Program-made: the position numbers and the translations under genes
In this document: one piece after another, positions 25,843-58,489 of the stretch
How positions within the stretch are numbered: the stretch's first letter is position 1
Layout of the letters: the number at the start of each line of letters is the position of its first letter
Notes under the pieces: generated by a model
Told to the model about the DNA's origin: nothing
What the model saw: the letters and a program-made list of their open reading frames with translations, nothing else
Database searches by the model: none
From: Escherichia coli
Lineage (GTDB): Bacteria; Pseudomonadota; Gammaproteobacteria; Enterobacterales; Enterobacteriaceae
Strand: one strand, 5' to 3'
NCBI RefSeq assembly: GCF_003018255.1
Contig: NZ_CP027440.1
Length of the DNA: 64,000 nucleotides

Positions 25843-25854
25843 AAATCTACTCCA

Positions 25855-25889
25855 GAAAAAAGAGGGTAGCAGCGTTAACTGCTACCCTC
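25855..25889 (-). terminator. intrinsic terminator in the gltI-gltJ spacer (SroC 3' end)
   Basis: 11-bp stem gagggtagcag / ctgctaccctc (25862-25889), loop cgttaa, U6 on the minus strand (plus A-run 25856-25861) running into the gltJ SD. Confidence 0.8.
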
Positions 25890-26015
25890 GAAGATTGTTA
25901 CCCAGCGTATTGCGGTTTTCAGGCCCGATGGGGAACGACCACCAGGCGTATAGTCTGTCCGTGCTACGTAACAATCGAGAGGGCTGGAATTTCCGCCCCT
26001 GGTTCTTGTAATTAG
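25855..26015 (-). ncRNA. sroC: SroC sRNA region (processed from the gltI-gltJ spacer); ends approximate
   Basis: gltI-gltJ spacer ending in a minus-strand intrinsic terminator; SroC is known to derive from this spacer. Confidence 0.55.
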
Positions 26016-26920
26016 TTCAGTGCCTTGTCATTCGGTTCTTTGAACAGTGCTTTCATTTCGTCTGACAGTTCGAAATTCATGTTCAGGTTTTTCGGCGGAA
26101 TTGGATTTTTGAACCACTTATCAAACCATTTTTCCGCTTCACCGGAGGTCTGCACCTGAGCGATGGTATCATCCATCAGCTTTTTGAACTGCGGATCGTC
26201 TTTACGCAACATGCAACCATAGGCTTCCTGAGACTGCGGCTTGCCGACGATTTCCCAGTTGTCTGGTTTCTTCGCTTTCGCACGTTCACCGGCCAGCAGA
26301 GCATCATCCATCATAAAGGCAACGGCACGACCGCTTTCCAGGGTACGGAAAGAGTCACCGTGATCTTTGGCGCTGATGATGCGCATATTCATTTTTTGCT
26401 CTTCATTCAGTTTGTTGAGCAAAACTTCAGAGGTGGTGCCGGAAGTGACGACTACGGCTTTGCCTTTCAGGTCGGCAAAATCTTTGATATCGCCGCCCTT
26501 TTTGGTCAGCAGGCGCGTACCGACCACGAAAATAGTGTCAGAGAAAGCCGCCTGTTTTTGGCGTTCGGCATTGTTGGTGGTAGAACCGCATTCAAAATCG
26601 AAAGTGCCGTTTTGCAGCAGTGGAATACGGTTTTGTGAGGTGATCGGAATCAATTTCACCTGTAAGTCTGGTTTGTTGAGTTTCTTTTTCACTGCTTCAA
26701 CAATGGCGTTGGAGTAATCCTGCGAGTAGCCCACCACTTTTTGCTGATTGTCGTAATAAGAGAAAGGTACTGAAGATTCACGGTGACCGACGACAATCAC
26801 GCCGTTTTTGGCGATTTTGTCCAGCGTACTGCCTGCTGCCGGGGCGGCGTCATCTGCCTGTGCCAGTCCTGCGGAAAGCGCCAGGGCCAGGATTGCTGTG
26901 GCAGGTTTACGTAATTGCAT
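26012..26920 (-). CDS. gltI: glutamate/aspartate periplasmic binding protein GltI (302 aa)
   Basis: Track ORF is N-extended; known start MQLRKPATAILALALSAGLAQA at 26920 with SD AAGGAG. Confidence 0.93.
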   Translation of the reverse strand: MQLRKPATAILALALSAGLAQADDAAPAAGSTLDKIAKNGVIVVGHRESSVPFSYYDNQQKVVGYSQDYSNAIVEAVKKKLNKPDLQVKLIPITSQNRIPLLQNGTFDFECGSTTNNAERQKQAAFSDTIFVVGTRLLTKKGGDIKDFADLKGKAVVVTSGTTSEVLLNKLNEEQKMNMRIISAKDHGDSFRTLESGRAVAFMMDDALLAGERAKAKKPDNWEIVGKPQSQEAYGCMLRKDDPQFKKLMDDTIAQVQTSGEAEKWFDKWFKNPIPPKNLNMNFELSDEMKALFKEPNDKALN

Positions 26921-36416: not shown

Positions 36417-36491
36417 TGGCTGGGGTACGAGGATTCGAACCTCGGAATGCCGGAATCAGAATCCGGTGCCTTACCGCTTGGCGATACCCCA
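36417..36491 (-). tRNA. glnX: tRNA-Gln (anticodon CUG), 75 nt
   Basis: Full match to the tRNA-Gln cloverleaf with CCA end; anticodon loop UUCUGAU. Confidence 0.95.
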
Positions 36492-36528
36492 ACTGGGTGC
36501 ACTTACAAGGTAAGCGTCTTGAATAAAT

Positions 36529-36603
36529 TGGCTGGGGTACGAGGATTCGAACCTCGGAATGCCGGAATCAGAATCCGGTGCCTTACCGCTTGGCGATACC
36601 CCA
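36529..36603 (-). tRNA. glnV: tRNA-Gln (anticodon CUG), 75 nt
   Basis: Identical copy of the preceding tRNA-Gln(CUG). Confidence 0.95.
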
Positions 36604-36651
36604 ACAAATTGGTTTTTGAATTTGCCGAACATATTCGACACATTCAGAATT

Positions 36652-36728
36652 TGGTGGCTACGACGGGATTCGAACCTGTGACCCCATCATTATGAGTGAT
36701 GTGCTCTAACCAACTGAGCTACGTAGCC
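36652..36728 (-). tRNA. metU: tRNA-Met elongator (anticodon CAU), 77 nt
   Basis: Match to GGCUACGUAGCUCAGUUGGUUAGAGC...CCA, anticodon loop CUCAUAA. Confidence 0.95.
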
Positions 36729-36743
36729 AGATTGTTTCTTCGA

Positions 36744-36818
36744 TGGCTGGGGTACCTGGATTCGAACCAGGGAATGCCGGTATCAAAAACCGGTGCCTTA
36801 CCGCTTGGCGATACCCCA
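36744..36818 (-). tRNA. glnW: tRNA-Gln (anticodon UUG), 75 nt
   Basis: tRNA-Gln body with anticodon loop UUUUGAU. Confidence 0.95.
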
Positions 36819-36852
36819 ATAACCGGGCGGTGAACCGCTTATTCGAAGAATA

Positions 36853-36927
36853 TGGCTGGGGTACCTGGATTCGAACCAGGGAATGCCGGTATCAAAAACC
36901 GGTGCCTTACCGCTTGGCGATACCCCA
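36853..36927 (-). tRNA. glnU: tRNA-Gln (anticodon UUG), 75 nt
   Basis: Identical copy of the preceding tRNA-Gln(UUG). Confidence 0.95.
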
Positions 36928-36950
36928 TCCGTACAACGCTTTCTGGTGAA

Positions 36951-37035
36951 TGGTGCGGGAGGCGAGACTTGAACTCGCACACCTTGCGGCGCCAGAACCT
37001 AAATCTGGTGCGTCTACCAATTTCGCCACTCCCGC
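36951..37035 (-). tRNA. leuW: tRNA-Leu (anticodon UAG), 85 nt
   Basis: Long-variable-arm class II tRNA, anticodon loop AUUUAGG, CCA end. Confidence 0.95.
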
Positions 37036-37043
37036 AAAAAAGA

Positions 37044-37120
37044 TGGTGGCTACGACGGGATTCGAACCTGTGACCCCATCATTATGAGTGATGTGCTCTA
37101 ACCAACTGAGCTACGTAGCC
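37044..37120 (-). tRNA. metT: tRNA-Met elongator (anticodon CAU), 77 nt
   Basis: Identical to metU; first tRNA of the operon. Confidence 0.95.
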
Positions 37121-53277: not shown

Positions 53278-54918
53278 ATGGCAATCCACAATCGTGCAGG
53301 CCAACCTGCACAACAGAGTGATTTGATTAACGTCGCCCAACTGACGGCGCAATATTATGTACTGAAACCAGAAGCAGGGAATGCGGAGCACGCGGTGAAA
53401 TTCGGTACTTCCGGTCACCGTGGCAGTGCAGCGCGCCACAGCTTTAACGAGCCGCACATTCTGGCGATCGCTCAGGCAATTGCTGAAGAACGTGCGAAAA
53501 ACGGCATCACTGGCCCTTGCTATGTGGGTAAAGATACTCACGCCCTGTCCGAGCCTGCGTTCATTTCCGTACTGGAAGTGCTGGCAGCGAACGGCGTTGA
53601 TGTCATTGTGCAGGAAAACAATGGCTTCACTCCGACACCTGCCATTTCCAATGCCATTCTGGTTCACAATAAAAAAGGTGGCCCACTGGCAGACGGTATC
53701 GTGATTACACCGTCCCATAACCCGCCGGAAGATGGTGGTATCAAGTACAATCCGCCAAATGGTGGCCCGGCTGATACCAACGTCACTAAAGTGGTGGAAG
53801 ACAGAGCCAACGCACTGCTGGCTGATGGCCTGAAAGGCGTGAAGCGTATCTCCCTCGACGAAGCGATGGCATCCGGTCATGTGAAAGAGCAGGATCTGGT
53901 GCAGCCGTTTGTGGAAGGGCTGGCCGATATCGTTGATATGGCGGCGATTCAGAAAGCGGGCCTGACGCTGGGCGTTGATCCGCTGGGTGGTTCCGGTATC
54001 GAATACTGGAAGCGCATTGGCGAGTATTACAACCTCAACCTGACCATCGTTAACGATCAGGTCGATCAAACCTTCCGCTTTATGCACCTCGATAAAGACG
54101 GTGCGATCCGTATGGACTGCTCCTCCGAGTGTGCGATGGCGGGCCTGCTGGCACTGCGTGATAAGTTCGATCTGGCGTTTGCTAACGACCCGGATTATGA
54201 CCGTCACGGTATCGTCACTCCGGCAGGTTTGATGAATCCGAACCACTACCTGGCGGTGGCGATCAACTACCTGTTCCAGCATCGTCCGCAGTGGGGCAAA
54301 GATGTTGCTGTCGGTAAAACGCTGGTTTCATCTGCGATGATCGACCGTGTGGTCAATGATTTGGGCCGTAAGCTGGTAGAAGTACCGGTAGGTTTCAAAT
54401 GGTTTGTTGATGGTTTGTTCGATGGCAGCTTCGGCTTTGGCGGCGAAGAGAGTGCAGGCGCTTCCTTCCTGCGTTTCGACGGCACGCCGTGGTCCACCGA
54501 TAAAGACGGTATCATTATGTGTCTGCTGGCGGCGGAAATCACCGCTGTCACCGGTAAGAACCCGCAGGAACACTATAACGAACTGGCAAAACGCTTTGGT
54601 GCGCCGAGCTATAACCGTTTGCAGGCAGCAGCGACTTCCGCACAAAAAGCGGCGTTGTCTAAGCTGTCTCCGGAAATGGTGAGCGCCAGCACCCTGGCAG
54701 GTGACCCGATCACCGCGCGTCTGACGGCGGCACCGGGTAATGGCGCTTCTATCGGCGGTCTGAAAGTGATGACTGACAACGGCTGGTTCGCCGCGCGTCC
54801 GTCAGGCACGGAAGACGCATATAAGATCTACTGCGAAAGCTTCCTTGGTGAAGAACATCGCAAGCAGATTGAGAAAGAAGCGGTTGAGATTGTTAGCGAA
54901 GTTCTGAAAAACGCGTAA
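53278..54918 (+). CDS. pgm: phosphoglucomutase Pgm (546 aa)
   Basis: Track ORF is N-extended; known start [16 protein letters not shown]; active-site TSGHRG (TPSHNPP). Confidence 0.95.
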
Positions 54919-54932
54919 ACATATCAAATAAG

Positions 54933-54963
54933 AAAAAGGGCGGTCGGAAGATCGCCCTTTTTT
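54933..54963. terminator. intrinsic terminator between convergent pgm and potE
   Basis: aagggcg (54936-54942) / cgccctt (54953-54959), T-run 54958-54963, A-run 54933-54937. Confidence 0.8.
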
Positions 54964-54974
54964 GCTTTGCTTAA

Positions 54975-56294
54975 TTAACCGTGTTTATTTTTCAGTTCAA
55001 AGCGTGGTGAGACCAGACCATACAGTGTCCAACCGAGGAAGGTCACGATGGAACCGTATAGCATGGCTTCTTCCCCGGATGAGTACAGCGCATAAAAGCT
55101 GTACATCGCGCCAACAAAAGCAACAAAGTTTGCAACTTTCGCTTTTGAGGGGGGCACATTAGCGACCTTCTGAATAATGACTAATGCCGCCATTGACAGA
55201 ATATACGGAATGATATTGGTCACCACGGCCAGGTTAACCAGCACGTTGAACTGACTGTTCAGCGACGGGCTAATGGTCATCAGTGATAATCCGCTCTGGA
55301 TGATGACAATGGTCAGCATTCCCTGTACTGGTGCATCGACTTTGCTCACACGGGAGAAAATTTTCGGGAAGTACCCTTCATCGGCAGAAGATTTAAACAC
55401 CTGGGCAATGGTGAACTGCCAGCCAAGCAGCGAACCGCAGCAGGACATCACCATCAGCGCCATAATGACTTTACCCACTTCCGGCGTGAACATCTGCGCG
55501 AAGGCCAGACCAAATGGTGCCGTTGAATTTGCCAGCTCCATATTTGGCACAATCCCGGCAATCACGTTGGTGGAGACGATATAAATCACCGCCGCACCTA
55601 ACGTACCGCCAAGAACTGCAATCGGCACGTTACGTTCCGGGTTTTCAACTACTTCGGCGTTGGCACAGGCTGACTCCAGACCGAGGAAAGCCCACAACGT
55701 CATGGCGATGGAAGAACCTACAGCGCTAAAGAACGGCACATGGTGCGGGTTCCATGAGTTAGCGTATAGCGTCGGGCTAAACCAGAACCAGCCGATAATG
55801 CACAGACCGACGACCGGAATAATGACCCCCCACACAGTAATGCTACTGATTTGCCCGGTAATGCGCGCACCACCAAAGTTAGCCACGGTACAAATCCACA
55901 GCACTCCGATGGTCGCAAGACCAATCTGCACTGGCGACAAACTCGCGCCGAGCAGTTCGGTGCCGTAACCAACCGCCGAAATAGCAATCGCGACGTTAGC
56001 AATCAGCAGCGAGACACCGTAGGTGTAGTTCGCCATAAAGTTCCCGGATTTACCGAAAGCATACTCCGCATAACCGCCCATACCGCCTGATTTACGGCTG
56101 AACATACCGCATTTTGCGAATGCCCATGCCAGTGCCATTGAGCCTACGGCTGTCACCAGCCAGGAGATAATTGAGATTGTCCCAACTTCGGCAAGCTTTG
56201 TCGGCAGCATGATGATACCGGAGCCCATCATGTTGACCATCGTCAGTATGGTTAACTGAACGACGCCCATCTTATTCGATTTAGCCTGACTCAT
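54975..56294 (-). CDS. potE: putrescine-ornithine antiporter PotE (439 aa)
   Basis: ORF track; APC-family transporter. Confidence 0.95.
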   Translation of the reverse strand: MSQAKSNKMGVVQLTILTMVNMMGSGIIMLPTKLAEVGTISIISWLVTAVGSMALAWAFAKCGMFSRKSGGMGGYAEYAFGKSGNFMANYTYGVSLLIANVAIAISAVGYGTELLGASLSPVQIGLATIGVLWICTVANFGGARITGQISSITVWGVIIPVVGLCIIGWFWFSPTLYANSWNPHHVPFFSAVGSSIAMTLWAFLGLESACANAEVVENPERNVPIAVLGGTLGAAVIYIVSTNVIAGIVPNMELANSTAPFGLAFAQMFTPEVGKVIMALMVMSCCGSLLGWQFTIAQVFKSSADEGYFPKIFSRVSKVDAPVQGMLTIVIIQSGLSLMTISPSLNSQFNVLVNLAVVTNIIPYILSMAALVIIQKVANVPPSKAKVANFVAFVGAMYSFYALYSSGEEAMLYGSIVTFLGWTLYGLVSPRFELKNKHG

Positions 56295-58489
56295 AATTTT
56301 TCCCCTTTCAACAGGGTGCTTTGCGCATCACGAGGCTTGATGACATAGCACCAAACTTGCTTACGACCATCATGTTCTTCGATATAGACACCCTGCAGCT
56401 CTGGTGCAAAACCTGGCAGCAGGTTGATCCCTTCTTCCAGAGCGCTGAAGTAACGCAGAACAGCACCACCCCAGATTTCACCCGGAACAACACACAGCAC
56501 ACCCGGAGGATAAGGAAGCGCACCTTCGGCAGCGATACGGCCTTCTGCATCCGGCAGACGAACCAGCTCCACTTCATCGCGTAAATAGGCGTAGTTGGCT
56601 TCTTGTGGATTCATGCTTACGCGTGGGAAGTGTTCCTTACGGAACATCTCTTTTTGCAGTTGTTTCACGTTGTGACGGGCATACAAATCATGCATTTCCT
56701 GACACAACTGACGCAGGGTATAACCGGTGTAGCGCTCTTCATGCTGTTTGTAGATGGAAGGCAGTACTTCTGATAATGGCGCGTCGGACTCAAGCAGTTT
56801 TTCGAAGCGTACCAGCAGAGCAACAAGTTGCTGAAGTTTGGCCATATCTTCTGCCGGAGTCAGCAGAAAGAGGATGGAGTTAAGATCGCATTTTTCCGGC
56901 ACTACGCCATTTTCGCGCAGGAAGTTAGCAAGAATCGTCGCGGGTACACCGAACGCTTCATATTCGCCGTTACGTGCATCAATACCTGGGGTTGTCAGCA
57001 ACAGTTTGCACGGATCGACAAAGTATTGATTCTCTGCATAGCCTTCAAAAGAATGCCAGTGCTCACCTGGTACAAACTGGAAGAAGCGCAGATCAACCGC
57101 AATTTGCGCCGTTTCATACGACTGCCAGGGTTTACCATCCACCAGTTCAGGTACGAATGGACGAATATGCTGACAGTTATCGAGGATTAGTTTGCGGGCA
57201 TTAATGCCATTTACCACACAATCCATCCACATATTACGACCGCTGACACCTTCATGCATTTTGGCGTTGATATCCAGTGCGGCAAACAGCGGATAGAACG
57301 GGCTGGTGGAGGCATGCATCATAAAGGCGTTGTTCATGCGTTTGTGCGGTACATAACGCTGTTGCCCTTTGATATGGCTGTCTTTTTTATGGATTTGTGA
57401 AGTCTGGGAAAAACCAGCCTGCTGTTTATGCACAGATTGCGTAACCAGAATACCCGGATCGTTCTCATTAAGATCCAGCAACAGTGGTGAACAGTCCGCC
57501 ATCATCGGGATAAACTGCTCATAGCCGACCCATGCGGAGTCAAAGAGGATGTAGTCACACAGATGACCAATTTTATCCACCACCTGACGGGCGTTATAAA
57601 TCGTACCGTCGTAAGTGCCTAGCTGAATAACGGCGAGGCGGAAAGGACGAGCCTCTTTTGCCCGCTGCGGTGCGAATTCCGCGATCAGTTCACGCAGGTA
57701 ACTTTCTTCAAAACAGTGAGCGTCAATACCACCGATAAAACCATACGGGTTACGTGCGGTTTCCAGATAAACCGGTGTCGCGCCAGCCTGTAGCAACGCT
57801 CCGTGGTGGTTAGATTTGTGGTTATTGCGGTCAAACAGCACCAGATCACCCGGTGTCAGCAGGGCGTTTAAAACCACTTTGTTAGAAGATGAAGTGCCAT
57901 TTAAAACGAAGTATGTTTTATCGGCATTAAACACTTTTGCCGCATGTTGCTGTGCAATGCATGGCGCGCCTTCGTGAATCAGCAGATCGCCCATCGCTAC
58001 GTCGGCGTTGCACAAGTCAGCACGGAACAGCGCCTCACCAAAGTATTCCACAAACTGATTCCCCGCGGGATGGCGACGGAAAAATTCGCCGCCCTGATGA
58101 CCGGGGCAATCAAACGCGCTGTTACCCTGATTGACATAATCGACCAGTGCGCGGAAGAAGGGCGGGCGCAGTTGCGTTTCATAATGGCTGGCTGCGGTTT
58201 CTAACTGACGACCATAAAATTCTCGTCGCGATTCGCAATTCTCAAAGACACCCGAAATACGGGGCAAATACTCTGCGGGTACACGTTCTTGATTTTCAGT
58301 AGCAATAAATACCGGGATGCCATAACCCGTGGCATCGATTTCATCGAGTTTTCCGCGTGTAACATCGTTGAGCGATAAAACTATTGCCGCCACATCGATA
58401 TTACTGTTTTCATTAATATAGATACATTCTCGCTGCGTGGTAAAACAGTCCGGGCAAGAATCACTAACCGCAATTTTTAATTTTGACAT
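56291..58489 (-). CDS. speF: inducible ornithine decarboxylase SpeF (732 aa)
   Basis: Track ORF is N-extended; known start MSKLKIAVSDSCPDCF at 58489. Confidence 0.95.
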   Translation of the reverse strand: MSKLKIAVSDSCPDCFTTQRECIYINENSNIDVAAIVLSLNDVTRGKLDEIDATGYGIPVFIATENQERVPAEYLPRISGVFENCESRREFYGRQLETAASHYETQLRPPFFRALVDYVNQGNSAFDCPGHQGGEFFRRHPAGNQFVEYFGEALFRADLCNADVAMGDLLIHEGAPCIAQQHAAKVFNADKTYFVLNGTSSSNKVVLNALLTPGDLVLFDRNNHKSNHHGALLQAGATPVYLETARNPYGFIGGIDAHCFEESYLRELIAEFAPQRAKEARPFRLAVIQLGTYDGTIYNARQVVDKIGHLCDYILFDSAWVGYEQFIPMMADCSPLLLDLNENDPGILVTQSVHKQQAGFSQTSQIHKKDSHIKGQQRYVPHKRMNNAFMMHASTSPFYPLFAALDINAKMHEGVSGRNMWMDCVVNGINARKLILDNCQHIRPFVPELVDGKPWQSYETAQIAVDLRFFQFVPGEHWHSFEGYAENQYFVDPCKLLLTTPGIDARNGEYEAFGVPATILANFLRENGVVPEKCDLNSILFLLTPAEDMAKLQQLVALLVRFEKLLESDAPLSEVLPSIYKQHEERYTGYTLRQLCQEMHDLYARHNVKQLQKEMFRKEHFPRVSMNPQEANYAYLRDEVELVRLPDAEGRIAAEGALPYPPGVLCVVPGEIWGGAVLRYFSALEEGINLLPGFAPELQGVYIEEHDGRKQVWCYVIKPRDAQSTLLKGEKL

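Follow-up and report, generated by a model that had tools for sequence, protein, structure and literature searches.

The pgm-potE Locus and Its Spacer

The window, i.e., the whole 64,000-nucleotide stretch of Escherichia coli DNA analysed here (assembly GCF_003018255.1, contig NZ_CP027440.1), contains a convergent gene pair, pgm and potE, whose stop codons are separated by a very short spacer (Table 1). The pgm gene is annotated as such in NZ_CP116067, a record identical to the window, and potE ends the speFL-speF-potE operon. The sequence of the spacer is ACATATCAAATAAG-AAAAA-GGGCGGTC-GGAA-GATCGCCC-TTTTTT-GCTTTGCTTAA, and its sole feature is one GC hairpin between an A-run and a T-run. The original prediction that pgm and potE are separated only by a hairpin spacer, made up of a GC stem with mirrored A- and T-runs at 54933-54963, thus agrees with the extended stem delineated here at 54932-54963. 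A scan of the whole 64-kb window with Rfam at gathering scores returned no RNA family match in 54919-54974. Outside the spacer, the same scan returned the sroC sRNA (25854-26016, minus strand), a cspA-type thermoregulator (4602-5050, plus strand) and a cluster of seven tRNA genes (36420-37120, minus strand).

Table 1. Features of the pgm-potE region, in coordinates of the window
Feature	Position	Strand	Basis or remark
pgm (phosphoglucomutase)	53278-54918	+	TIGR01132 equivalog, 1074 bits; tblastn coordinates; 3' end faces the spacer
Convergent intergenic spacer pgm/potE	54919-54974		56 bp between the two stop codons
Putative terminator hairpin (extended stem)	54932-54963	both	Fold energies; terminator scan (+ strand)
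A-run of the hairpin	54933-54937		
GC core of the hairpin	54938-54945 / 54950-54957		
Loop of the hairpin	54946-54949		GGAA
T-run of the hairpin	54958-54963		
K-12 junction	54935-54963		29 nt matching the K-12 extra segment at either end (blastn)
potE (putrescine-ornithine antiporter)	54975-56294	-	NF007938, 856 bits; TIGR04299, 845 bits
speF (inducible ornithine decarboxylase)	56291-58489	-	TIGR04301, 1430 bits; tblastn
speFL leader peptide ORF, 34 aa	58747-58851	-	ORF MENNSRTMPHIRRTTHIMKFAHRNSFDFHFFNAR; relative position equals that of annotated MG1655 speFL

Folding of the Spacer on Both Strands

The core of the hairpin spans positions 54938-54957, and it lies 19 nt past the pgm stop codon and 17 nt past the potE stop codon. 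Judged by its make-up, the plus strand element reads as a textbook intrinsic terminator, with an 8-bp GC stem that A:U pairs extend to 14 pairs, a 4-nt loop, and six U residues (UUUUUU) directly 3' of the stem. When folded as RNA, the spacer reaches -22.9 kcal/mol on the plus strand (z -4.3; 1 of 200 shuffles equally good) and -17.2 kcal/mol on the minus strand (z -3.2; 2 of 200 shuffles equally good), and the energies of the core stem are -14.4 and -9.4 kcal/mol, respectively. At the site of a G.U pair of the plus strand, the minus strand stem has a C.A mismatch, and the U-tract that directly follows this stem, UUUUUCUUAUUU, is interrupted, with 7 U among its first 8 residues. A consensus terminator scan called the plus strand site and did not call the minus strand site; since it found one site against 1.2 expected in shuffles, which is not above chance alone, the scan is not counted here as evidence by itself.

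The K-12 Segment and Its Two Hairpins

In MG1655 (NC_000913.3) the gene order is pgm (b0688), ybfP (b0689, a lipoprotein), ybfG (b0691, a pseudogene), ybfI (b4636, a pseudogene) and potE (b0692), and the small ORFs that the original prediction placed between pgm and potE in K-12 are therefore indeed annotated there. The K-12 spacer is 1,747 bp long, with an extra segment of ~1.69 kb. The products annotated in a K-12-like record are a lipoprotein, a DUF2625 protein whose frame is interrupted by a stop, and a winged-helix fragment that lacks its N-terminus. A Pfam search of YbfP returned no family. The ybfI pseudogene corresponds to 147 bp from the 3' part of kdpE; the identity is 84% for amino acids by tblastn and 91% for nucleotides, in agreement with the RefSeq note. 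No tblastn match to YbfP or DUF2625 was found anywhere in the 64-kb window, so the K-12 accessory genes are absent from it, as had been predicted.

A blastn alignment of the window with a K-12-like record gives two blocks with flank identities of 95.8-97.3%; the left one extends to 54963 and the right one begins at 54935, which defines the junction given in Table 1. The potE/speF side of this alignment (95.8% in 54935-57000) is more diverged than the pgm side (97.3%), and a similar observation can be made among Escherichia species, where potE/speF are 87-88% identical and thus far more diverged than pgm (93-95%).

The extra segment of K-12 is bracketed by two related hairpins: T, located past pgm, is AAAGGGCGGTCGCAAGATCGCCCTTTTTTAC, and T', located past potE, is AAAGGGCGATCATTCAATCGCCCTTTTTTAC. 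The two constitute a 31-nt direct repeat that is 81% identical, with 1692 bp between the copies. The pgm strand gives the best pairing for T, and the potE strand a slightly better one for T'. The DNA that separates the two hairpins carries two REP elements, ybfP, ybfG, ybfI and an additional REP fragment. The REPs were recognised by their dispersal: each genome has 11-55 places that match positions 5-158 of the K-12 insert. There is no REP in the spacer of the window, and the REP-bearing part of K-12 (about 5567-5664 of the K-12-like locus) has no counterpart in the window alignment.

Several observations concern the segment and its surroundings in other strains. In KN12-1 (4686-5336 of its locus) the DUF2625 gene that is the pseudogene ybfG in K-12 is intact (216 aa; PF10946, 290 bits), which indicates that other lineages carry the K-12 segment in an allele that is diverged (95%) and has decayed less. 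An IS200C element lies directly past hairpin T in E. coli E06 (3424-3882 of its locus), and IS1A is found within the ybfP-ybfI segment in one MG1655 assembly. A potE match on plasmid NZ_CP182310.1 of E. coli EC100 was set aside as irrelevant to the junction, being only a 360-bp fragment between IS26 copies (6001-6360 of its locus, 89% identical); it adjoins a class 1 integron with dfrA14 and is probably chromosomal debris captured by IS26. A literature search on ybfP and potE was dominated by the human POTE genes and returned nothing on the pgm-potE junction.

Distribution of the Short Spacer in Escherichia coli

A 1,056-bp query with the spacer at its centre showed that pgm and potE adjoin each other in 3,196 of the 5,426 complete genomes of E. 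coli (59%), so the compact spacer is not the oddity that the original prediction implied. In all seven short-form genomes sampled (93.8-98% identity to the window) the annotated pgm-potE gap is 55-56 bp. ST131 MB1341, PBP5 and DETEC-S792 share the spacer sequence of the window exactly, and a 76-nt query (the spacer with 10 nt per side) matched ~1,039 genomes at at least 99% identity. The same 56-bp spacer is, in other words, present in reference genomes, which the original prediction had named as a finding that would speak against it. The K-12 insert is present at a coverage of at least 80% in 1,851 of the 5,426 genomes. The K-12 form is the minority state and the short form is the majority state of the species, and a convergent pgm/potE spacer with a shared hairpin is an already known, ordinary architecture that is annotated in thousands of public records.

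As T and T' are direct repeats with 81% identity, it is conceivable that two similar hairpins were merged during assembly and that the short spacer is an artefact. This explanation was rejected and its probability is practically negligible: the repeats are 31 nt long, far shorter than reads, the short form occurs in 3,196 independently finished genomes and has lineage-specific spacer variants, and the spacer is short in E. albertii and in other genera, too.

A third layout, in which pgm is followed by hairpin T, a REP, a ybfP-like gene and directly by kdpE, was observed in ST70 O7:H15, S1-ESP-03-A and AF39. These strains lack speFL-speF-potE and hence the inducible ornithine decarboxylase and the antiporter. 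The third layout accounts for roughly 360 of the 5,426 genomes, a figure estimated arithmetically from place counts and not obtained by a direct count.

The Locus in Other Genera and in Relatives of Escherichia coli

Outgroups were sampled as one genome per species using a degenerate pattern for the PotE peptide GWQFTIAQVFK, which yielded at least 120 loci that were classified by tblastn; the outgroup matches listed include no Salmonella, E. fergusonii, E. marmotae, E. ruysiae or named cryptic clades. The order seqA-pgm followed by convergent potE-speF-kdpE was found by tblastn in E. albertii and in Citrobacter, Cedecea, Enterobacter, Lelliottia, Atlantibacter, Trabulsiella, Raoultella, Kluyvera (including K. 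georgiana), Phytobacter and Pluralibacter. Overall, the convergent layout of pgm and potE is present in E. albertii and at least 12 other enterobacterial genera, many of which have a hairpin composed of an A-run, a stem and a T-run. A homologue of YbfP or DUF2625 was detected by tblastn at none of the 120 outgroup loci listed.

Hairpins with a GC stem between an A-run and a T-run were found in E. albertii, Citrobacter FP75, three species of Cedecea, Atlantibacter, Kluyvera georgiana, Enterobacter ENT03 and Trabulsiella. The stem is GGGAGCGA/TCGCTCCC in Cedecea, GGAGCC/GGCTCC in Citrobacter FP75, GGGAGCC/GGCTCCC in both Atlantibacter and Kluyvera georgiana, and GCCTCCC/GGGAGGC in Enterobacter ENT03. 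The structure of the hairpin is thus kept while the sequence of its stem changes across genera.

Closer to E. coli, all eight places sampled in E. albertii have a 57-bp spacer with a single perfect hairpin, GGGCGATC-ATTC-GATCGCCC. The strain deposited as 'E. coli' E69 (CP089930) belongs to a separate Escherichia lineage, with pgm 95-96% and potE/speF 87-88% identical to those of E. coli. Its spacer is 222 bp long and consists of T, two REPs, ~30 nt and T', with no genes, and the same arrangement is found in all eight contigs of the lineage. The K-12 spacer equals the E69 spacer with ~1.5 kb inserted just before T'.

Other cargo occurs elsewhere in the family. In Kluyvera spp. and Citrobacter sp. 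Res13 (4689-5530 and 2545-3030 of two of these loci) a Pyridox_ox_2 (PNPOx-like) gene is located between pgm and potE, and Kluyvera has a DUF1294 gene there as well. The presence of different cargo in other genera indicates that the same convergent spacer was filled independently more than once.

A Probable Shared Bidirectional Terminator

Intrinsic termination is brought about by pausing of RNA polymerase on a U-tract and formation of a hairpin, upon which the transcript is released. In the mechanism that we propose, two convergent units, seqA-pgm on the plus strand and speFL-speF-potE on the minus strand, would both end at one GC stem-loop, the U-tract being supplied by the T-run for pgm and by the complement of the A-run for potE. 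RNA polymerase arriving from the pgm side would pause at the U-tract encoded by 54958-54963, the GGGCGGUC/GAUCGCCC hairpin would form, and the transcript would be released. The polymerase arriving from the potE side would meet the complement of this element, i.e., the stem GGGCGAUC/GACCGCCC with its single C.A mismatch followed by the minus strand U-tract, the A:U extension of the stem being common to both directions.

The stronger argument that the hairpin would function as a terminator, and the one that rises above chance, comes from its position in a convergent spacer and from the occurrence of the same architecture with different stems in other genera. The mirrored A-run is kept across genera and would be needed only if the hairpin also acts on the potE strand. 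We therefore infer that termination takes place at this hairpin in vivo and that it is bidirectional, with a weaker effect in the potE direction. Given the C.A mismatch, the interrupted U-tract and the absence of a minus strand call in the terminator scan, termination of potE transcripts may be leaky or may depend on collision of polymerases.

The same weakness of the minus strand stem and U-tract could be taken to mean that the hairpin is mainly a 3' stabiliser of both mRNAs or a site of pausing and collision, with potE transcription being terminated by collision or by Rho. Head-on collisions of polymerases have been proposed to add to termination at convergent pairs (bioRxiv 10.1101/2022.10.23.513370), which is in line with such a role. 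Since the plus strand would form a textbook terminator and since the conserved A-run would have a use only in minus strand function, we consider this explanation improbable. We prefer the reading in which both units share the spacer as one bidirectional intrinsic (Rho-independent) terminator, the compact layout being the majority state in E. coli and general in Enterobacteriaceae and the K-12 segment being strain-variable, and we assign to it a probability of roughly 0.88. The term 'bidirectional terminator' used in the original prediction is thus apt as far as the architecture is concerned, and both strands fold better than shuffled sequences; for the potE direction it applies in a weaker sense and is deduced from sequence. 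Bidirectional terminators between convergent pairs are described as prevalent in E. coli (bioRxiv 10.1101/2022.10.23.513370), and a number of 306 bidirectional sites among 704 convergent pairs is cited in a recent preprint (bioRxiv 10.64898/2026.03.23.713779).

Origin of the Short Form

At the family level, the compact convergent layout is ancestral, as no outgroup locus listed carries a homologue of YbfP or DUF2625. For the short form of E. coli itself, we find it reasonably probable that it arose by a collapse between T and T' rather than by descent from an ancestor that was never interrupted. According to this scenario, T' would be the conserved orthologue of the ancestral terminator and T would be a copy that originated when the REPs were inserted in a common ancestor shared by E. 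coli and the E69 lineage. Either recombination between T and T' or slippage during replication, in the 17 nt ATCGCCCTTTTTTACTT common to both, would then remove the intervening DNA and restore the compact layout.

The E. albertii hairpin is identical to T' of E69 at 20 of 20 positions and to T' of K-12 at 19 of 20, and to T at 15 of 20. All nine short-form spacers compared (the window and eight genomes) combine a T-type stem with the right flank of T', a combination that is explained most simply by a T/T' collapse; the loops of these T-type hairpins are GGAA, GCAA or AGAA. No short form with the hairpin of T' or E. albertii was found in complete genomes, and the best match to a synthetic construct of this kind (96%) is of the T type. 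The flanks of short and long forms can be nearly identical: O91:H21 (short) and K-12 (long) have 2 differences per 500 positions in pgm and 6 per 500 in potE, and TCM3e1 and E06 have 6 per 500 in potE. The polymorphism therefore cuts across allele lineages, as would be expected of a repeatable loss or of recombinational exchange.

Alternatively, the short form may never have been interrupted. T would then be orthologous to the E. albertii hairpin and have simply diverged from it, and the K-12 segment would have been inserted later, bringing or duplicating T'. Such a history agrees with the ancestral short layout of the family, in which no listed outgroup has ybfP or DUF2625, with the 59% of genomes that are short, and with the left flank of T (AATAAGAAAAAGGGCG), which resembles that of the E. 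albertii hairpin. It is less probable, however, because it is T', not T, that matches the E. albertii hairpin, although potE is only ~88% identical between these lineages, and because T and T' occur together already in E69, an Escherichia lineage outside E. coli. The polymorphism across flank alleles also fits recurrent loss between repeats better than repeated identical insertion. The origin of T from the E. albertii hairpin by inversion of the loop was considered as well and set aside, the count of 3 versus 5 differences being not decisive. A collapse between T and T' remains the scenario that we favour.

The cargo found between T and T' consists of REPs alone in the E69 lineage and of REPs with ybfP, DUF2625 and the kdpE fragment in K-12-like strains. 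A tentative proposal, which we deem rather unlikely, is that the terminator hairpin is the recombination substrate of a small hot spot, where a duplication of ~33 nt brackets inserts, recurrent collapse regenerates the compact form, and the resulting chimeric hairpin is tuned to pgm over potE. If true, this would make terminators built-in excision sites that ease the loss of accessory cargo between convergent genes.

Implications and Comparison with Known Systems

The significance of the locus is small, since its difference from K-12 is a matter of ordinary accessory-genome variation. What is new here, and mildly interesting, is the pair of related hairpins that brackets the K-12 segment, together with the probably chimeric origin of the short-form hairpin. 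As K-12 is atypical at pgm-potE, K-12 maps of 3' ends for pgm and potE are not directly transferable to most E. coli. In short-form strains the acid-inducible speF-potE genes and pgm share one asymmetric hairpin, and read-through from either unit could yield RNA antisense to the other; as the hairpin is predicted to be less strong for potE, a part of the speF-potE transcripts may extend into pgm in antisense orientation.

A class of bidirectional intrinsic terminators between convergent E. coli gene pairs was reportedly described with SEnd-seq by Ju and colleagues in 2019, as cited in bioRxiv 10.1101/2022.10.23.513370. The pgm/potE element shares with this class a palindromic GC stem-loop, a short convergent spacer and an A-run and a T-run on the two sides. 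The difference is that the SEnd-seq mapping was done in K-12, where pgm and potE are not adjacent and each has a hairpin of its own (T and T'). Another point of comparison is the intergenic variation due to REP and BIME elements: the positions of REPs reportedly vary between strains and favour convergent spacers (bioRxiv 10.64898/2026.03.23.713779), and REPs are carried by the spacers of K-12 and E69 but not by that of the window. Compared with K-12 MG1655 (b0688-b0692), the window has the same flanking genes, and its hairpin differs from T by a single base in the loop, which is GGAA in the window and GCAA in K-12, while the 1,747 bp with two REPs, ybfP, ybfG, ybfI and T' in K-12 stand against 56 bp in the window. 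The closest counterpart in another species is that of E. albertii, with a spacer of 57 versus 56 bp, just one hairpin and the same outer bases of the stem (GGGCG/CGCCC); its stem is a perfect palindrome with -14.2 on both strands, whereas that of the window, with a G in place of an A in the stem and a different loop, is asymmetric.
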